From an uncultured Thermoleophilia bacterium (GTDB lineage Bacteria; Actinomycetota; Thermoleophilia; UBA2241), in NCBI GenBank assembly GCA_963767505.1, contig CAVYDV010000008.1, positions 358,937-422,936 on the forward strand: a DNA stretch of 64,000 nt, written 5' to 3'. The position numbers were made by a program, and so were the translations under genes. Under the pieces are notes generated by a model. The model did not search any database, was not told the origin of the DNA, and was given only the letters and a program-made list of their open reading frames with translations. Positions 6,162 to 52,996 of the stretch are shown here, piece after piece; the first letter of the stretch is position 1, and each line of letters starts with the position of its first letter.

Positions 6162-8179
<2,018 letters not shown>

Positions 8180-9490: not shown

Positions 9491-10276
9491 ATGGAACGCG
9501 GCGGTACCGTGGCGGCCGGTCGCCGGCCCCTGATCGCCGGCAACTGGAAGATGTACAAGACGCGCCCCGAGACGATGCAGTACCTGCGTGAGTTCATCCC
9601 GCTGGTGCGGTCCGCCGGCGAGCGCGACATCGTGGTCTGCCCACCGTTCGTGTGCCTGGAGACCGCTGTCGCGGAGTCGCTGCGCACGAACGTCGGCGTC
9701 GGAGCGCAGACCATGGCCGCCGGCGACGAAGGCGCCTACACGGGCGAGGTCTCCCCGGAGATGCTGCGCGAGCTGGGCGTACAGTTCGTCATCCTCGGCC
9801 ACTCCGAGCGGCGCGACTTTCCCTACGATACAGACCGTATGCTGGCCCATAAGGTGAGAGCCGCGCTGAACAAGGGCATCCGCCCGATCCTTTGTGTCGG
9901 AGAGACACTCGAGGAGCGCGAAGGCGGCTTGACCGAAAGCAAGGTCGGCCGCCAGATCGACACCGGCTTGGCCGACGTGAGCCCGGCTGAGTTCGCGCTC
10001 GTCGCCGTGGCCTACGAGCCTATCTGGGCGATCGGCACCGGCCTGCGGGCCACACCCGACATGGCACAGGAGACGATCTCCTTCATCCGTGAGCGGCTGC
10101 GCAGCAGCTTCGGAGGTGCCGCCGACGCCGTGCGCATTCTGTACGGCGGCAGCGTCAATGGGGCAAGCATCGACGCCCTGATGGCCGAGCCGGACATCGA
10201 TGGCGTGCTGGTAGGCGGCGCGAGTCTCGAGCCCAACGAGTTCGCGCGGATCGCGCGCTTCGTGGAGAGCGTGTGA
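9491..10276 (+). CDS. tpiA: Triosephosphate isomerase (in frame with pgk; possible own start ATG 9491 or GTG 9509)
   Basis: [29 protein letters not shown] and YGGSV motifs. Stop at 10274-10276. Confidence 0.9.
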
Positions 10277-11866
10277 CAGGCACGCGATCCGGCGAAGCGC
10301 CGCCTGGCGACCCTGCGCTGTCCCCGACAGGACGGCTGTACAGCCCCGTGGCGCTCGTCATCCTCGATGGCTGGGGCAGCGCGCCCCCCGGGCCGAGCAA
10401 CGCCATCAGTCAAGCGCGGACGCCCGTCTTCGATCGGCTGGAGGCCGAATTCCCTTGCGGCGAGCTCGAAGCATCCGGCCTAGCCGTGGGGCTGCCGCCC
10501 GGCCAGATGGGCAACTCCGAGGTCGGACATCTCAACATCGGAGCAGGCCGGGTCGTCTTCCAGGACCTGACGCGCATCACAGCAGCCATCGCCGACGGCA
10601 CGTTCTTCGACAACCGCGTGCTGCGGCAGGCTTGCGCCAAGGCCGTCCGGGCGTTCGAGCACGCTGCATCTCATGGGCCTCGTCTCCGACGGGGGAGTGC
10701 ACAGCGACCTGGGGCACCTCGAGGCGTGCCTCGTCCTGGCCGCCCGCGAACACGTCCCCAACGTCGTCGTCCACGCCTTCCTCGACGGGCGCGACACCTT
10801 GCCGCGCAGCGCCAAGGGCTACCTGGCCGAGGTGCAGGCGGTCATGGACCGCCTCGGCATCGGCCGCTTCGGCGTGGTCTGCGGTCGCTACTACGCCATG
10901 GACCGCGATACGCGCTGGGATCGGACGAAGCTGGCCTACGACTCCCTGGTCACGGGCGAGGGCTTCGTCGCCGCCGACGCGCAGGCCGCCGTCGAGGCGG
11001 CCTACCGACGGGGGGAGGACGACGAGTTCGTCCGGCCCACCATCGTGGCGCCCGAGCACGACACGCGCATCAAGGATGGTGATGTCTGCCTCTTCTTCAA
11101 CTTCCGGCCCGACCGCGCTCGTCAGCTCACTGAGGCGTTCTTCGAGAGCGAATTCGAGCCGTTCGACCGCGGTCCGCGTCCCCCGGTCGTCGACTTCGTC
11201 ACCATGACCGAGTACAAGCGGGAGTTCCCGGTGCCGGTCGCCTTCCCGCCGGAGCACCCCACGCAGGTGCTGGCGGATGTCCTCGCCGAGCACGGGCGGC
11301 GCCAGCTTCACATCGCCGAGACCGAGAAGTACGCCCACGTCACGTTCTTCTTCAACGGCGGGGTGGAGCCTCCGCCCGACGGGGAGGAGCGCATCCTGGT
11401 GCCGAGCCCGCGGGACGTCCCCACCTACGACCACAGTCCGGCGATGAGCGCGTACGAAGTCACCGACCAGCTCGTCCGTCGGCTGCAGGGCGGCGACTTC
11501 GACTTCGTCGTCGTGAACTTCGCCAACGCCGACATGGTCGGCCACACCGGGGTGATCAGCGCCGCCGTCGAGGCCATCGAGGCGGTCGACGAGTGCGTGG
11601 GACGGCTCACCGCCGCCGTCGCCGCGCTTGGCGGCGTCTGCCTGATCACGTCCGACCACGGCAACGCCGACCACATGCTGGAGCCAACGGGAGGCGCCAA
11701 CACGGCCCACAGCACGAACCGCGTCCCGTTCATCGCGACCGTTCCAGGCGTGCGCGTCCGCCCCGGCGGCCGCCTCTGCGACGTGGCGCCGACGGTTCTC
11801 GCCCTCATGGGCATCGCCCAACCGCCGGTCATGACCGGCATCGCCCTGCTCGAAGCGGCTGGCTGA
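10273..11866 (+). CDS. gpmI: 2,3-bisphosphoglycerate-independent phosphoglycerate mutase; one frame break (~10660)
   Basis: [24 protein letters not shown] | [13 protein letters not shown], ..[11 protein letters not shown] 10273-11082 continues in ORF 10673-11866. The GTG start overlaps the tpiA stop. Confidence 0.85.
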
Positions 11867-14183: not shown

Positions 14184-14259
14184 GCGTGCTGTCCGAGACC
14201 CTGCGTTCCGCATCCCCCGGAGGTACCGGCGGGAGCGTTGAGCCGGTAGGCTAGAGCCC

Positions 14260-33205: not shown

Positions 33206-33604
33206 TTGACCGAGAGGATCAACCTCGAGGTGCCGGCTTCGCTCAGCGCTCTCTCGGCGGTCCGCAGAGTGCTCGGCGGTCTCGGTGCGCGGCTCGGCTA
33301 CTCGCTGGACGACATCGAAGACCTCTACCTCGGCACAGAGGAGCTGCTGCGCGCCGCGCTGAGCTACGAATCACTCGAGTGCTTTCGCCTCGAGATGCTG
33401 GTGGCGGCAGACCACCTGCAGCTCACGATCGGCACGTTCTCTTCGGAGCGCCTGCTGGCCGAAGTGGCTGCCGAGGTGCAGGCCTGCGACAGCATCGACC
33501 TCTGCCGCTTGCTGCACCGCACCATGGATGAGGTCAATGTGGTCGATCCAAGCGACGCCTTCAGCGTGGTGCTCCTCCGGCGCCATCGGGATGTGGACTC
33601 GTGA
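33206..33604 (+). CDS. RsbW-like anti-sigma factor lacking the kinase ATP-binding motifs
   Basis: The N-terminal half aligns by eye with B. subtilis RsbW (INLEVPASLSALSAVRRVLGGLGARLGYSLDDIEDLYLGTEELL vs [44 protein letters not shown]). The N-box Asn and the DxGxG/GxG boxes are absent. The stop overlaps the sigma gene GTG. Confidence 0.6.
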   Translation: MTERINLEVPASLSALSAVRRVLGGLGARLGYSLDDIEDLYLGTEELLRAALSYESLECFRLEMLVAADHLQLTIGTFSSERLLAEVAAEVQACDSIDLCRLLHRTMDEVNVVDPSDAFSVVLLRRHRDVDS

Positions 33605-34434
33605 GCGTGGATGCGCACGACGACGTCGAAGGCCGCGGTCGCGACGAGTCGGAGAAGCTGGATCAGTACCTGCTGCGCCGCTACCATTTGCACGGCGACC
33701 AGAAGGCGCGCGAGCAGCTGATCACCATGTACATGCCGCTGGTGCGCTCGCTGGCGCGGCGCTACGCCTCCCGCGGTGAGCACTTCGACGATCTCGTCCA
33801 GGTCGGGGCGATCGGCCTGATCAAGGCCATCGACCGCTTCGACCTTGCTCGGGGTGTCGAGTTGACGACCTACGCCACGCCCAACATCGTCGGCGAGATC
33901 AAGCGCTACTTCCGCGACAAGGGCTGGTCGGTGCGGGTGCCTCGCGGCCTGCAGGAGCTGAACATCCGCGTCAACAAGGTGATCGACGAGCTGACTCCCA
34001 AGCTGCAGCGTTCGCCGACCATCGCCGAGATCGCGGAGTCGGCCAACGCCACGCCGGAGGAAGTCCTCGAAGCGCTTGAGTCAAGCCAGGCCTACAACTC
34101 CATCTCCCTTCAGGCGTCCCCGAACAGCGATTCCGGCGACGACGAGGCCAGCCTCGTGGACTATCTCGGGGGCGAGGAGGACGCCTACGACACGATGGAG
34201 GATCGCACGATGCTGGCCCCGGGCTTCGCCAAGCTCGAAAGCCGCGAGCGCTACATCCTCCACCTGCGCTTCTTCGAGGGCCTTACCCAGAGCCAGATCG
34301 CGTCGCGCGTCGGCATCTCGCAGATGCACGTTTCGCGCCTCATCCGGCGTTCGCTGGAGAAGCTCCGCGAGGAGATCGGTGAGCTCAATGCTCCGCCGGC
34401 CAAGCGCTCGCCGAGCACCGGCGACGACCTGTAG
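33601..34434 (+). CDS. Group-3 sigma-70 family factor (SigB/SigF type)
   Basis: Region 2 (FDDLVQVGAIGLIKAIDRFD, TYATPNIVGEIKRYFRDKGWSVRVPR), region 3, and region 4 HTH (LTQSQIASRVGISQMHVSRLIRRSL). Intact. Confidence 0.85.
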   Translation: MSVDAHDDVEGRGRDESEKLDQYLLRRYHLHGDQKAREQLITMYMPLVRSLARRYASRGEHFDDLVQVGAIGLIKAIDRFDLARGVELTTYATPNIVGEIKRYFRDKGWSVRVPRGLQELNIRVNKVIDELTPKLQRSPTIAEIAESANATPEEVLEALESSQAYNSISLQASPNSDSGDDEASLVDYLGGEEDAYDTMEDRTMLAPGFAKLESRERYILHLRFFEGLTQSQIASRVGISQMHVSRLIRRSLEKLREEIGELNAPPAKRSPSTGDDL

Positions 34435-38831: not shown

Positions 38832-39641
38832 ATGGGCGACCCCGTAGCGCACTCGCTGTCGCCGGCGGTCCACAACGCCGCCTTCGCAGCAGCGGGCCTC
38901 GACATGGTCTACGTGCCGCTGCCGGTGCGCGCCCAGGACGTCGGCGCCGCGGTCAACGGCCTTGTCGCCCTTGGCTTCCGCGGCGCCAACGTGACCGTCC
39001 CTCACAAGGGAGCCGTGATCCCGTGGCTCGACTGGCTCGACGACGACGCCCGCCTCGCGCAGGCGGTCAACACGATCGTCGTCGAAGATGGCGTGCTACG
39101 CGGCTACAACACCGATATCGACGGCGCACGCACGGCGCTGGTCGGCGTATGCGGAGACTCCTTGCGCGGCTCCCGCGCCCTTGTCCTCGGAGCCGGGGGC
39201 GCCGCGAGAGGTGTCGCGCTGGCGCTGGCGAGGCTGGGCGCCGTGCTCACGGTCGTGAATCGTACCGGCGCTGGAGCCGAGCGCCTCGCCGCGCTCGCCG
39301 AAGCCGGCGTGCCCGGCGCCGCCTGCCGCTGGCTTCCCCTCGACGAACTCACGCCGGCGGATGTCGCGCAGCAGAGCCTGCTTGTCAATGCGACCTCCCT
39401 CGGGATGACAGGAGCAGGTAAAGTCCCCGCGTCGTTGGTCGATACAGTGTCAGCAGGGCAAGTCGTATTCGATGTTGTGTACGGCCGCACGGAGACAGAT
39501 CTGCTGCGGCAGGCGCGCAGCCGGGGGGCCCAGACGGTGGACGGCAAAGCCATGTTTCTGGCCCAGGCGATTGGGGCCTTCCGACTCTGGACGGGTCAGG
39601 CGCCACCGGCAGACGTGATGCAGACTGCACTGAACTCATGA
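38832..39641 (+). CDS. aroE: Shikimate dehydrogenase; homology appears to extend upstream of the first ATG
   Basis: GDPVAHSLSPAVHNAAF and NVTVPHK. The in-frame upstream codons read ..TQVIGIM, the usual beta-1 strand, but lack a canonical start. TTG 38771 is in another frame. The stop overlaps the pilB ATG. Confidence 0.85.
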   Translation: MGDPVAHSLSPAVHNAAFAAAGLDMVYVPLPVRAQDVGAAVNGLVALGFRGANVTVPHKGAVIPWLDWLDDDARLAQAVNTIVVEDGVLRGYNTDIDGARTALVGVCGDSLRGSRALVLGAGGAARGVALALARLGAVLTVVNRTGAGAERLAALAEAGVPGAACRWLPLDELTPADVAQQSLLVNATSLGMTGAGKVPASLVDTVSAGQVVFDVVYGRTETDLLRQARSRGAQTVDGKAMFLAQAIGAFRLWTGQAPPADVMQTALNS

Positions 39642-42639: not shown

Positions 42640-43854
42640 ATGAGCACCTTCGCCTACAAGGCGCTCGACGCCAGAGGCATGGCCGCGGGCGGACAGATCG
42701 ACGGTGCCAGCAAGGCCGCCGCGGCCGCTGCCCTGCGTCACCGGGGCCTCACCGTCCTCGACCTCAACGAGGTCAAGCGCGGCATCGGGCAGATCGAGAC
42801 TCGGCGGTCGCATCAAGCCCAAGGACCTGACCATCTTCTCGCGGCAGTTCGCGACCATGGTCAACTCGGGTCTCTCGATGCTGCGCTGTCTCTACGTGCT
42901 CGAGGAGCAGACGCAGAACAAGAAGCTCGCCAAGGTCGATCGGCGCCGTGCGCGCCGACGTCGAGGCCGGCATCATCCTGTCGGACGCGCTCGAGAAGCA
43001 CCCCAAGGTGTTCAGCCGGCTCTACGTCAGCATGGTCCGCGCCGGAGAGGTCGGCGGCATCCTCGATGAGGTGCTCAACCGCCTGGCGACCCAGCTGGAG
43101 AAGGAAGACAGCATCCGCCGCGCCGTCAAGTCGGCCATGGTGTACCCGGTGGTCATCGGCGTGTTCGCCATCCTCGTCCTGGTCGGCATGGTGATGTTCC
43201 TCATCCCCATCTTCGCCGGCATGTACAAGGAACTCGGGGACGCCGAGCTGCCGCTCCTCACGCGTATCATGGTGGGCCTCTCGGAGATCTTCCGCAGCTG
43301 GTGGGGTCTCGTCATCCTGGGTGTGATCATCCTCCTCATCTGGGTCGTCGCCCGGCTCAAGCGCACGCGAGAAGGGCGCCATGGTGTGGGACCGCTTCAA
43401 GCTGCGCATCCCCATGGGCATCGGCCAGATCGTCCGCAAGCTCGCCATCGCGCGCTTCTCGCGCACCCTGGGCACGCTCATCTCTTCCGGCGTGCCCATC
43501 CTCCAGGCTATCGAGATCACCGGCCAGGCAGCCGGCAACGCCGTCATCGAGCACGCCATGAAGGATGTGCAGCAGAGCGTCAAGGAGGGCGAGCCGATCA
43601 CCACCCCTCTCGAGAAGGTCTCGGTGTTCCCGCCCATGGTCACGCAGATGATCGCCGTGGGCGAGGAGACGGGCTCGCTCGACGCCATGCTGGGCAAGAT
43701 CGCCGACTTCTACGAGGACGAGGTCAACGCCAGCATCAAGTCGCTCACCTCGATCATCGAGCCCATCCTCATGCTCGGCGTCGGCATCATCGTCGGCATC
43801 GTCGTCATCTCGATGTACCTGCCGATCTTCAACATGATGAACATCGTCAAGTAG
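42640..43854 (+). CDS. pilC: Type IV pilus inner-membrane platform protein PilC (GspF family); 3 frame breaks
   Basis: MSTFAYKALDARG.., two GspF repeats (..LTIFSRQFATMVNSGLSMLRCL.., ..IARFSRTLGTLISSGVPILQAI.., PPMVTQMIAVGEETGSLD). Breaks at ~42795, ~42940 and ~43378. Confidence 0.85.
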
Positions 43855-43873: not shown

Positions 43874-44615
43874 GTGGAGAACGAGCAGCTGATCGCCGGA
43901 TATGCGACGAGCGGGTCGGCCGCGGCGCTCGACGAACTCGTCCGCCGCAACCAGAACCTGCTGCACCATATCCTCAAGCGTTTCGCGTACGCCAACGAGT
44001 CCTACGAGGACCTTCTGCAGGTCGCCAATCTGGGGCTCATCAAGGCGGCACAGCGCTACGACGCCACACGGGGCACGCGCTTCTCGACCTATGCGACGGC
44101 GATCATCGACGGCGAGTTGCGCCACCATCTGCGCGACTCGCTGCTCCTGCGACAACCTCGCTGGGTCAAGAAGGTCTACGCCGATATCCAGGTCAAGTCG
44201 AACGAGCTCATGCACAAGCTCGGCCGGGCTCCGGAGCTGGGCGAGATCGCGGCGGCTCTGAACATCGACGAAGACGGCATCCTCGAGGTCATGCGCCTCT
44301 ACGCGCGCATCGATCTGCACAGCCAGAACGAGCCGTACAGCGGCGACGACATGGGCATCGAGGCAGATCGCCAGTCCGTACGGGCCCTGCGGCAGGAGTC
44401 GTTCGCGCTGCCCATCGAGGACCGGATCGTCCTCTACGACGCTCTCGACACTCTCACTGGGTTCCAGCGTCGGCTCGTCTACCTCCTCTTCTTCAAGCAA
44501 CTCACGCAGTCCGAGGTCGCAGACCTGCTCGGCTTGAGTCGAAGGTCTCGCGCGAGCAGATCAAGCTGCTCGCACGACTTCGCCAAGCGTCTGCGCGGCT
44601 GGCCGCTTCACGATA
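43874..44615 (+). CDS. Group-3 sigma-70 family factor (FliA/SigD/WhiG-SigF-like) encoded inside the pilus cluster; one frame break (~44537)
   Basis: Region 2 (YEDLLQVANLGLIKAAQRYDATRGTRFSTYATAIIDGELRHHLRD), region 3 (LGRAPELGEIAAALNIDEDG), region 4 (RRLVYLLFFKQLTQSEVADLLGLS | KVSREQIKLLARLRQ..). Corrected stop TAG 44613-44615. GTG lies 19 nt after the pilC stop. Confidence 0.8.
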
Positions 44616-44855
44616 GTGCGGGCAAGAGACCCGCCTGCGCGGCTGCAGGCAGCGTCAGCGCCGCGCTGAGGCGTCCCCCGACTGGCGCACGGCCTGCCCC
44701 TCGATGGCCACTCCCGTCCACACGAGGGCATCCGTCGGCCGCTCACCGATCACGCAGTTCCTCGCCGCCGACCACGTGTCGACGAACCACTAGACGCTTG
44801 TTCCAGTCTGGGAGTGCCTGATCGGGGCAGAGTAGGTGTGCGTCAGACAGTCGCC

Positions 44856-44883
44856 TAAAGTGTCAACACGCGATTGCCGAAAG
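44856..44883 (+). promoter_or_regulatory. Candidate sigma-28-type promoter TAAAG-N15-GCCGAAAG upstream of the pilA leader
   Basis: TAAA at 44856-44859, a 16-nt spacer, then GCCGAAAG at 44876-44883 (consensus TAAA-N15-GCCGATAA). A second copy with identical spacing is at 51830-51857. Confidence 0.5.
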
Positions 44884-44919
44884 AGTGTCTAGGAAACGCA
44901 CAAGGAGGCACACTAGGGA

Positions 44920-45000
44920 CGAAAGCGATAAAGGCAAACCACCCGCGAGGGTGGGGCGCAAAGCTACAGGACTCACAGAGTCGGCTGAGCTGCCGCTACA
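44920..45000 (+). promoter_or_regulatory. Candidate c-di-GMP-I (GEMM-I) riboswitch aptamer in the pilA 5' leader
   Basis: GGCAAACC (44933-44940). Helix CCACCC/GGGTGG capped by GNRA loop GCGA (44939-44954). GGCGCAAAGC (44955-44964). A 12-bp second hairpin (44962-44991). Closing pairs GGC/GCC and AGC/GCT. Confidence 0.65.
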
Positions 45001-45155
45001 GGAGCGTTCAACAAAGCCTGTGAAGCCCGGCCGCGCCAAGCCAGAGCTTCGCAGGCTTCTTCTGTGGGGTCCGCGCAGGAAGCAGGGTCGGCAAGTCGTA
45101 CTACGCAGTCGTGTACATGTGGGGCAACGCACCAACAGAGAGGAGATGGCAGAAC

Positions 45156-45542
45156 ATGAAGCGTTTCACCAAAAAGCAGGGGGGCTTCACCCTCATCGAG
45201 CTCCTGATCGTGATCATCATCATCGGCATCCTCGCCGCGATCGCGATCCCGATGTTCCTCAACCAGCGCACCAAGGCCAAGGACGCAGGCGTCAAGGAAG
45301 GCACGCACAGCATCCAGATCGGCGTGCAGAGCTACGCCGTCGACAACAACGACGTCTATCCGCTGACCGCCACCATCGTCGCCGACGTCACGCCTCAGCT
45401 CGACCCGTGGCCGGACAACTCGTTCACCGGTGCCGCTATGGCCAACGACGGCGCCTTGGGCAACTTCACCTACGCGTCTGTCGCCGGAGCCGACTACACG
45501 CTCCTGGGTGTCTTGAGCGGCGGCAACTTCGTGGTGCGCTAG
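45156..45542 (+). CDS. pilA: Type IV major pilin (class III signal peptide)
   Basis: MKRFTKKQG|GFTLIELLIVIIIIGILAAIAIP shows a prepilin leader, cleavage-site Gly, Phe+1 and Glu+5. RBS AGAGAGGAG. 128 aa. Confidence 0.92.
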   Translation: MKRFTKKQGGFTLIELLIVIIIIGILAAIAIPMFLNQRTKAKDAGVKEGTHSIQIGVQSYAVDNNDVYPLTATIVADVTPQLDPWPDNSFTGAAMANDGALGNFTYASVAGADYTLLGVLSGGNFVVR

Positions 45543-45567: not shown

Positions 45568-45603
45568 GCAGCGGGACGGGGCCATAAGGCCCCGTCCCGC
45601 TGC
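45568..45603 (+). terminator. Strong stem-loop after pilA (16-bp perfect stem, loop ATAA); candidate terminator
   Basis: GCAGCGGGACGGGGCC-ATAA-GGCCCCGTCCCGCTGC read directly, 26 nt after the pilA stop. No T-tract. Confidence 0.6.
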
Positions 45604-48824: not shown

Positions 48825-48966
48825 GCAGGCGGTACGTCATCCGGGTGACCACTCCGTCACCCTCGTGACCTTCCGCCTGCTCGGCTAGGCTGGCTGCGTT
48901 CTCCCCCCGGGTCGACACGAGGCATCCTCCCGGCCTCGTTCGACCCCCTCCCGCCGGAGGTGAGGA

Positions 48967-51718: not shown

Positions 51719-51829
51719 CCCTCAGACGCAGGAGGCCGGACGAATGCTCTGTACCTCGTTTACCCAGTATGAGAGACTTGTGCCATGTGCAGGGAAGGTG
51801 CCGAAAGCAGCTCGGCGAACTCTGCGTCT

Positions 51830-51857
51830 AAAGGTATCCGTGCTGTCTGCCGACAAC
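51830..51857 (+). promoter_or_regulatory. Candidate sigma-28-type promoter TAAAG-N15-GCCGACAA upstream of pilM
   Basis: TAAA at 51830-51833, a 16-nt spacer, then GCCGACAA at 51850-51857 (7/8 to GCCGATAA). It lies 36 nt upstream of the pilM ATG, which has RBS GAAGGGG. Confidence 0.5.
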
Positions 51858-51892
51858 GCCGCCAGAGCGGCGATGTGAGTGAAGGGGCTGGA

Positions 51893-52996
51893 ATGGGGAA
51901 GAGTGGACCGCGCGTCGGGATCGACTTGGAGCAGTCCTCGATCGCCGGGGCGCAGGTGAACGGCTCGCGGCAGGGGCATGCATTGACTCATGCTGCCGTC
52001 CGATCCCTCCCACCGGGATTGATGTTCGAGGGCGAGGTCGTCGACGTAGAGGGTCTCGCCGCGGAACTCAAGTCCTTCTGGAAGGCGAGCGGCTTCAGCG
52101 GCAAGAGGTTCGCCCTCGGAGTCGCGAACCAGAAGGTCGTGGTCCGCACCATGGACTTCCCGATCATGGACGAGAAGGAGTTGCGCGCCGCGATCGAGTT
52201 CCAGGCCCAGGAGGCCATTCCCATCCCGCTCGCTGACGCCATCCTCGACTTCGAGGTACTGACGACAAGCTCTGGTCCAGACGGCGGCGGCTCCCAGAAG
52301 GTGCTGATCGTCGCGGCGCAACGAGAGATGGTCGAGCAGTTCGTAGAGGCAGCGCGAAAGGCCGGACTCACCATCGACGGACCTCGACCTGCAGGCGTTC
52401 GCCCTCATGCGGTCGATGGCTCCCCCGGTTGCGTTCGTCGATCAGGGTTCGCAATCTGCCGGAGAGGCGACGGCGCTCGTCAACATGAGCTCCAGCACCA
52501 CCAACCTCGTCGTGGCCGTCAACGAAGTACCCCAGTTCACGCGCGTCGTGAACCTCGGCTGCGAAGCGCTTCTTGAGGCGCTTGATGACCAACCGCGGCA
52601 TCAATCACGATGAGGCCGACGTCCTGCGTCTCAACGTGGGGCTCACCGGCTCGGAGCCGCCGTTCGCGGACCTCGAACAAGAGACGCTGGCCGAGGTCCA
52701 TCGGGTCCTCGACACCGCCTGCGAGGCGTTCGCCGACGAGGTGCGCAGGTCGATCGACTACTACCACTCCCAGGACAACCCCGGGCAGATCGGCGAGATC
52801 CTGCTCAGCGGCGAGGGCGCCCTGACGCGCAACATGTGCGACTACCTGGCGCAAGCGCTCCACCTGAGCGTCGCGCTCGGGAATCCCCTGCAGCATCTCA
52901 GCGAGAACAAGACGAGCATTCCCCAGAGCCGACCTTGAGGCGATCTCTCCGCGCCTCGCCGTCGCCTTGGGTCTCGGCCTGGACAGCGAGGAGTAG
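51893..52996 (+). CDS. pilM: Type IV pilus assembly protein PilM (actin-like ATPase fold); 3 frame breaks
   Basis: ..RVGIDLEQSSIAGAQV.., ..FALGVANQKVVVRTMDFPIMDEKELRAAIEFQAQE.., ..LVNMSSSTTNLVV.., ..ILLSGEGA.., C-terminal ..ISPRLAVALGLGL. Breaks at ~52385, ~52585 and ~52925. Confidence 0.8.

Follow-up and report, generated by a model that had tools for sequence, protein, structure and literature searches.

A sigma-28-type promoter motif upstream of pilB, pilA and pilM in the type IV pilus cluster of an uncultured Thermoleophilia bacterium and its relatives

The pilin gene pilA in the type IV pilus cluster of an uncultured Thermoleophilia bacterium is preceded by a bipartite motif which, judged by its sequence and its conservation, is very probably a genuine promoter of the sigma-28 class. 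The motif recurs upstream of pilM and, as a variant copy within the aroE coding sequence, upstream of pilB, and the pilA copy stands in front of a leader that contains a c-di-GMP riboswitch aptamer and an intrinsic terminator. For the joint claim that these are sigma-28-class promoters and that they are read by a WhiG-type sigma factor encoded elsewhere in the genome, we estimate a probability of about 0.55.

Results

Sigma-28-type motifs in the pilus cluster

The DNA analyzed (the window) is a contiguous stretch of 64,000 nucleotides with a G+C content of 67%, and coordinates refer to it unless a related locus is named. Its pilus region comprises mltG (37470), aroE (38832), pilB (39638), pilT (41550), pilC (approximately 42640-43854, in several frames) and a sigma factor gene (43874) and then, after pilA (45158-45542), ABC-transporter and prepilin-peptidase genes, minor pilin genes and pilM (51893). 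An intact relative, locus L081, has the order SigB-like sigma, alaS, ruvX, mltG, aroE, pilB, pilT, pilC and a 246-aa sigma, followed by a 373-nt gap, pilA, a second pilin gene, two ABC genes, one unknown gene and pilD, and finally by minor pilin genes, a 167-nt gap and pilM-pilN-pilO. In the window pilC is split over several frames and pilM (51893-52938) is truncated; together with the many 1-nt gaps against the nearest related locus, L053 (93% DNA identity), this points to long-read indel errors and not to a decaying pilus cluster. Further upstream the window holds a 6S RNA (RF00013; 28449-28602, + strand; 79.9 bits against a gathering score of 46.4) and a canonical SigB/F-like sigma gene (33601-34434, + strand) encoding GEIKRYFRDKGWSVRVPR and ISQMHVSRL. 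The latter is preceded by a small ORF (33206-33604, + strand), the pair being located upstream of alaS and conserved in relatives; from its position alone, our guess is that this ORF could encode an anti-sigma factor.

The region in front of the pilA leader reads gcCTAAAGtgtcaacacgcgattGCCGAAAGa, in which TAAA (44856-44859) is separated by a 16-nt spacer (44860-44875) from the octamer GCCGAAAG (44876-44883), exactly as an earlier reading of this DNA, made from the sequence only, had described. The candidate promoter, P_pilA, lies on the + strand and has a -35 element CTAAAG (44855-44860), extended to CCTAAAG (44854-44860), 15 nt from a -10 element that matches the sigma-28 octamer GCCGATAA at 6 of 8 positions, with the GCCGA core, CGA included, intact. 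Because the last base of the octamer is at -8 in the Pseudomonas aeruginosa sigma-28 open complex, the numbering of the fliC promoter of that organism (PMC12784957) places the predicted pilA transcription start near A44891 (44890-44892, + strand). This lies approximately 33 nt before the Rfam aptamer, close to the 25-30 nt that had been proposed. P_pilA is 274 nt from the pilA start codon, and a sigma-70 promoter scan found no sigma-70-like promoter in the sigma-pilA spacer. That spacer, measured with the sigma frame repaired to stop at 44615, is 542 nt long; the earlier description of it as 540 nt of otherwise featureless DNA does not hold, as it contains the aptamer, a terminator hairpin, conserved blocks and a 176-nt insertion.

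Upstream of pilM the same arrangement is found on the + strand as TCTAAAG-N15-GCCGACAA (P_pilM, 51827-51856), made up of TCTAAAG at 51827-51833 and GCCGACAA at 51849-51856 with 16 nt between TAAA and the octamer, which ends 36 nt before the pilM ATG (51893); the predicted start is near 51864. This copy had been noticed previously at 51830-51857 and is real, with the same spacing as at pilA; its coordinates were one base off. The third site, P_pilB, is TAAAG-N14-GTCGATAC (39419-39445, + strand; full sequence TAAAGTCCCCGCGTCGTTGGTCGATAC), which lies within the aroE coding sequence 192 nt before the pilB ATG (39638) and is a variant copy relative to the pilA and pilM sites, with 15 nt between TAAA and the octamer as against 16 nt at the other two; its predicted start is near 39453.

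We considered whether the motif could be a chance resemblance in AT-poor DNA, given that the pilA -10 element departs from the consensus at 2 of its 8 positions and that the motif was first spotted by eye. The exact pattern TAAA-N15/16-GCCGA occurs twice on both strands of the window (128 kb), against 0.12 occurrences expected, and none of 100 shuffled sequences reached two, in agreement with the earlier statement that no other exact pair is present. The relaxed pattern TAAAG-N14/15-GYCGA adds the aroE site, giving three matches where 0.07 are expected (0 of 100 shuffles reached three). All three (39419, 44856 and 51829) are on the gene strand and upstream of pilB, pilA and pilM, and the presence of several sigma-28-type promoters within one type IV pilus cluster is a feature shared with the Rubrobacter-type RsiG-WhiG regulon. 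The shuffle tests and the conservation of position over dozens of species-level genomes, described below, refute chance, to which we assign practically no weight.

Conservation of the motif across related loci

A scan of species-representative genomes yielded 80 related loci, nearly all from Thermoleophilia metagenome-assembled genomes plus one from Rubrobacter taiwanensis. In a regular-expression search of these loci the motif appeared, on the gene strand, at three places that recur in relation to the sigma gene. There are 131 exact matches in 82 sequences (1.45 Mb), compared with approximately 9 expected by our own calculation from base composition. The gene strand carries 124 of the 131, and 119 can be assigned to the three position classes: pilA (42), pilM (40) and pilB (37). 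Within these classes there are 35, 34 and 24 distinct spacer sequences for pilA, pilM and pilB, respectively; nearly all spacers differ, so the conservation of the motif is not simply that of undiverged DNA. Spacer length is 15 or 16 nt at every site in the relatives.

Bases that were absent from the search pattern are conserved as well: TAAA is followed by G in 118 of 119 sites, including all 42 exact-core pilA orthologous sites, and preceded by C in 40 of 40 pilM sites. We also enumerated all dyads (4-mer, N14-18, 5-mer) without reference to the motif. Between the sigma gene and the riboswitch core, TAAA..GCCGA ranked first (30 of 47 regions), as did CTAA or TAAA..GCCGA upstream of pilM (27 of 29 regions). 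When 59 loci were anchored on the riboswitch, TAAAG..GCCGA matched at 10 of 10 positions in 38, at 9 in 8 and at 8 in 7; the variants found at these sites, TCAAG and ACCGA, fit the published WhiG2 consensus T(A/C)AA (PMC12871210).

Strand and distance from the transcription unit are kept in the orthologous loci. The end of the octamer is 50-59 nt from the aptamer core in the near clade or 79-88 nt in distant clades; at pilM, all 40 loci place it 34-40 nt ahead of the start codon. The pilB-class octamer is GTCGATAC in the window and GCCGATAA in the relatives. Taken together, the comparative evidence strongly supports both the original call of a sigma-28-type promoter and its link with the pilM copy.

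The site within aroE

The pilB-class site could be conserved merely as coding sequence, and we rejected this explanation. In most loci the site reads xxT AAA GTC CCx ... GCC GAT AAC in the aroE frame, and the codon before AAA always ends in T, though it encodes Gly, Ser, Leu or Asp. A distant Gaiellales-like clade encodes a different protein sequence (Leu-Lys ... Val-Asp-Lys) in a shifted register, CTA AAG ... GTC GAT AAA, and despite the register shift it keeps TAAAG-N15-GTCGATAA. The nucleotides are thus retained while both amino acids and codon register change, so it is the DNA itself that is under selection, as would be the case with a promoter of pilB.

The pilA leader

The segment that would open the transcript, GUGUCUAGGA...GGAGGCA, is conserved. 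This 5' leader (GTGTCTAGGA...GGAGGCA..., 44885-44923, + strand) pairs with the 3' side of the aptamer in an extended outer helix (alignment columns 69-71 with 171-173) that shows 4 compensatory changes. The aptamer itself (44924-44998, + strand) is a c-di-GMP-I-GGC riboswitch (RF03167) with a score of 66.9 bits (gathering score 59), and 47 of 48 sigma-pilin spacers contain its core. The Rfam gathering score was passed in 6 of 6 Thermoleophilia loci, 5 of them as RF03167 (61-66 bits in the relatives) and L044 as c-di-GMP-I, RF01051. Rfam found no c-di-GMP riboswitch at the Rubrobacter locus examined.

Downstream of the aptamer is a terminator-like hairpin (AAGCCTGTGAAGC / GCTTCGCAGGCTT, then CTTCTGTGG; 45014-45067 with the hairpin at 45014-45058, + strand). 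Its helix covaries, with 7-8 double changes at the outer pairs, and in relatives a T-run follows it; strong covariation together with the T-run identifies it as an intrinsic terminator. The 5' strand of the terminator is complementary to the aptamer bases AGCYACAGG, and this alternative helix pairs in 91% of sequence-pair cells, compared with 23-47% when the partner is slid; the competing helix is invariant and hence without covariation support. From this pairing scheme we infer that the folded, ligand-bound aptamer would free the terminator, making the element a putative OFF switch. The minimum-free-energy fold of the whole leader is no better than that of shuffled sequences (z-score -0.7), so our structural statements on the leader are based on the alignment.

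The gene that follows, pilA (45158-45542, + strand), encodes a canonical type IV prepilin, KKQGGFTLIELLIV (pilin sequence MKRFTKKQGGFTLIELLIV...), and its orthologues in L081 and L083 carry the PF07963 N_methyl domain. Just after it is a perfect 16-bp GC-rich hairpin (45568-45603, + strand; fold -53 kcal/mol, z-score -6.4) that has no clear U-tract and probably marks the end of a monocistronic pilA transcription unit.

Further conserved blocks flank the motif: CTAGAC..TTCCAGTC and GGGGCAGAGT upstream, and GTGTCTAGGA downstream. Those upstream of the -35 element are CTAGACGCTTGTTCCAGTC (44790-44808), positioned just after the sigma stop codon in relatives, and GGGGCAGAGTAGG (44824-44836), likewise conserved in relatives. 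Both are similar to two blocks of the leader on the downstream side of the promoter, GTGTCTAGGA and ATAGGGGCAGAGG, and they could be operator sites or the remnant of a duplication. A different layout is found in L027, where the riboswitch and terminator (10738-11084) lie directly 3' of the sigma gene and TAAAG..GCCGAACT comes after the terminator, approximately 65 nt before pilA. There, judged from this order of elements, the riboswitch would control transcripts that read through from the operon upstream, and transcripts from the promoter itself would not include it. The L027 arrangement shows the promoter and the riboswitch to be separable modules.

The spacer between pilD and the minor pilin genes (48834-48891) contains a pair of direct repeats, ACGTCATCC (48834-48842) and CCGTCACCC (48854-48862), 20 nt apart, and a housekeeping-type -10 element TAGGCT (48886-48891) approximately 23 nt after them. 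GTCA..CGTCA is the top dyad of this spacer in 29 of 46 relatives, and the element looks like an activator-dependent promoter. We had considered this spacer as the site of a second promoter type that would be the cluster sigma's own target and rejected it: direct repeats with a housekeeping-like -10 element are not of SigB/F type. Around the second pilin gene, dyad enumeration in the spacers yielded nothing but GC-rich dyads resembling hairpins.

The cluster-encoded sigma factor

The sigma gene immediately upstream of the spacer (43874-44615, + strand) encodes a group-3 sigma factor that has hundreds of 246-aa orthologues in uncultured Thermoleophilia. It is SigB/F-like: the best family is TIGR02980 (SigB/SigF/SigG) at 163.7 bits, below that model's cutoff of 234.35, and the FliA/WhiG model TIGR02479 gives 82.2 bits against a cutoff of 189.6. 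Among solved structures it is closest to SigF (96 bits) and a SigB-type chain (91), with FliA at 50 and Streptomyces WhiG at 45. In sigma-28 of P. aeruginosa, S224 and Q228 make base-specific contacts with the -35 element (PMC12784957). A hand alignment of region 4.2, QKKVSR(ES) in the cluster sigma and ESRVSQ in P. aeruginosa, places K and R at these two positions, residues shared with SigB/F proteins. An R. taiwanensis orthologue sits in the same pilus cluster of that genome, and the idea that the cluster sigma is the Rubrobacter WhiG was rejected, since this orthologue matches the crystallised WhiG (chain 7lq4) with only E = 3e-9 and over region 4 only.

The 3' end of the sigma gene is structurally different in three genomes that are about 93% identical (window 44500-44821; L053 10600-10800; L083 10600-10900). 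L053 retains an intact 3' end. In the window, 4 nt are missing near 44538, within region 4.2, by comparison with the intact orthologues, and the 3' end is replaced by a lineage-specific 176-nt replacement or insertion (44605-44780). L083, 93% identical to the window, has a different 5-nt deletion and an insertion of approximately 95 nt at the same spot, and Pfam detects only regions 2 and 3 in its sigma; its pilB, pilT, pilC, pilA and pilD are intact and its pilA promoter is identical to that of the window. Between the window and L053, 59 of 70 gaps are 1 nt and look like long-read errors, for which a 4-nt deletion is atypical. Genuine decay or variation of region 4.2 could account for the damage, as could an assembly artefact.

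Which sigma factor reads the promoters

In the mechanism we propose, a holoenzyme with sigma-28 (FliA/SigD/WhiG) specificity would bind CTAAAG and GCCGAAAG as -35 and -10 elements and start near A44891, giving a transcript that would run from the conserved leader through the c-di-GMP-I-type aptamer, the terminator hairpin and pilA to the strong terminal hairpin. P_pilB, in aroE, would drive pilB-pilT-pilC-sigma, P_pilA the pilin gene and P_pilM the unit pilM-pilN-pilO. The class of promoter agrees with the published sigma-28 consensus, including TCTAAAG (PMC12784957), and with the WhiG2 consensus T(A/C)AA-N16-GCCGATAA (PMC12871210). The likeliest reader would be a WhiG-type sigma factor encoded outside the 64-kb window, as proposed for Rubrobacter. 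By analogy with Rubrobacter, where the alternative sigma factor is held by a c-di-GMP-armed anti-sigma factor (PMC8325347), WhiG would here be held by RsiG; if so, c-di-GMP would control the pilin at two steps, acting on initiation by way of the sigma/anti-sigma pair and on elongation by way of the predicted OFF riboswitch.

The window and the approximately 80 loci (1.45 Mb) revealed neither a FliA/WhiG-family sigma nor RsiG, and tblastn with Escherichia coli FliA and Streptomyces venezuelae WhiG against the window and all loci returned only two non-sigma-28 sigmas at 26-31% identity. The window likewise yielded no WhiG or RsiG genes and no diguanylate cyclase or phosphodiesterase genes sharing the promoter, as they do in the Rubrobacter regulon. 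A protein search with a 72-residue fragment of R. radiotolerans WhiG, taken from PDB alignments, returned just 9 short fragments.

The promoters may instead be real and read by the cluster sigma, a SigB/F-like protein that would then have sigma-28-like specificity and form an autoregulated private module through P_pilB. We hold this to be rather unlikely. WhiG was not found nearby, that is, in the window and related loci, and the cluster sigma gene is syntenic with the three promoters from Thermoleophilia to Rubrobacter. P_pilA lies directly 3' of it, and its co-transcription from P_pilB would be an arrangement typical of autoregulation. The cluster showed no further conserved promoter type that might be its target, the motif of the minor-pilin operon being different (a direct repeat and then a TAGGCT-type -10 element). 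The properties of the protein argue the other way: HMM and solved-structure comparisons put it nearer to SigB/F than to FliA/WhiG, and in its QKKVSRES helix K and R take the places of the S and Q with which sigma-28 contacts the -35 element. Both the window and L083 have a damaged region 4.2, and in L083 the pil genes are intact and the pilA promoter is that of the window. Known SigB/F-type promoters are GGGTA-type and look different from the motif. Cyanobacteria supply points on both sides, as the group-3 SigF of Synechocystis, a sigma of the SigB/F lineage, is dedicated to the pilin gene pilA1 and autoregulated, a precedent for such a module, and the promoter of pilA1, TAGGC (-32) / GGTAA (-12), is unlike the motif (Asayama and Imamura 2008, PMC2532724). 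Sigma-28-type sites have moreover been predicted in the pilus clusters of other actinobacterial families (PMC12871210).

The pairing of the motif with the 43874-44615 sigma, implied by the sequence-only reading, is therefore not supported: the protein is SigB/F-like, the -35 contacts are missing, and region 4.2 is broken while the promoters are intact. A broken cluster sigma beside intact promoters, together with the wrong -35 residues, favors a reader encoded elsewhere, if not decisively. In its full form the opposing view would have the orphan SigB/F-like sigma read all three promoters as an autoregulated module, with sigma-28-like specificity despite the different helix and layered with the c-di-GMP OFF riboswitch, which is unlikely. 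If the cluster sigma does read them, the WhiG assignment of the Rubrobacter pilus promoters needs re-examination.

That the bipartite motif instead binds some other regulatory protein, or belongs to an RNA element in a read-through transcript from the sigma gene, is very improbable. Such a role would be in keeping with the other conserved blocks that flank the motif and with L027, where the position of the motif after the terminator implies read-through into the riboswitch in at least one lineage. The two boxes, however, are asymmetric, are separated by a variable 15-16-nt spacer and occur in strict orientation at promoter-like distances from three different genes; one copy is within a coding sequence, which makes an RNA role unlikely, and agreement with the well-defined sigma consensus includes bases outside the search pattern.

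Discussion

With these results, the association of type IV pili with sigma-28/WhiG-type promoters reaches beyond Rubrobacter into a large, uncultured share of the Thermoleophilia. They indicate two-level control of the pilin, by an alternative sigma factor at initiation and a c-di-GMP riboswitch in the same transcript at elongation. They also raise the question of the role of the conserved second sigma inside these pilus clusters. Such promoters in actinobacterial pilus clusters have already been published, in Rubrobacter, and are described here from an unstudied lineage. New to our knowledge are the coupling to a c-di-GMP riboswitch in the same leader, the promoter embedded in aroE, and the location of P_pilA and P_pilB outside published search criteria. 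Those criteria take intergenic sites within 200 bp of a start codon, and they miss two of the three sites, since P_pilA is more than 200 nt from its start codon and P_pilB is inside a gene.

A c-di-GMP riboswitch upstream of the pilin gene pilA1 of Clostridioides difficile, with a class II aptamer and acting as an ON switch, is said to have been described by Bordeleau and coworkers in 2015. In both organisms a c-di-GMP-sensing leader would control premature termination before a type IV pilin gene. The C. difficile leader is of class II, is ON and is not known to be paired with a sigma-28-type promoter, whereas the element here is a class I GGC variant whose sign we predict to be OFF.

Promoters of the FliA/sigma-28 type are a close match. 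The P. aeruginosa fliC promoter reads (-36)TCTAAAG(-30) ... (-15)GCCGATAA(-8) (PMC12784957) and shares with the sites described here the extended -35 element CTAAAG/TCTAAAG, the GCCGA core and the 15-16-nt spacer. The present sites differ in serving a pilus and not a flagellum, in the last three bases of the -10 element (AAG and CAA) and in that the sigma that reads them is only proposed.

Among Actinomycetota, a preprint by Denis et al. (2026) predicts type IV pilus genes as WhiG targets in several families and gives the WhiG2 consensus as T(A/C)AA-N16-GCCGATAA, with CGA invariant and the 3' end (last three bases) variable (PMC12871210). Pilus targets, consensus and invariant CGA are all paralleled here, in the Thermoleophilia, which are absent from the text of that work, and with a riboswitch, which goes unmentioned there.

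A closely similar system is that of Rubrobacter (R. radiotolerans and R. xylanophilus; Schumacher et al. 2021, PMC8325347), which represents a sister class of basal Actinomycetota. In R. radiotolerans, 12 sigma-28-type promoters have been confirmed by start-site mapping, and three mapped TAAA/GCCGATAA promoters lie within the pilus cluster (PMC8325347). Their assignment to WhiG comes from consensus matching and start-site mapping, not from a whiG mutant or in vitro transcription, and WhiG with a single-motif RsiG also occurs in cultured Thermoleophilia (PMC8325347). The rsiG gene of Rubrobacter is located away from the pilus cluster. In the present lineage a c-di-GMP riboswitch leader follows the pilA promoter, an element absent from the Rubrobacter locus examined, one promoter is inside aroE, and the starts are predicted in uncultured Thermoleophilia, whereas those of Rubrobacter are mapped.

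In the R. taiwanensis locus (L079), TAAAG..GCCGACAA is found at 7274, 21 nt before the likely aroE start, and TAAAG..TCCGATAA at 14244, after a pilin gene. The pilus cluster of this species encodes an orphan group-3 sigma (9905-10732), of which we found no mention in the searched text of the Rubrobacter paper. The two lineages share the TAAA/GCCGATAA consensus, three promoters per pilus cluster and the alaS-ruvX-mltG-aroE-pilB neighborhood, and in R. taiwanensis, as here, the motif is associated with aroE-pilB, in that case preceding the pair.
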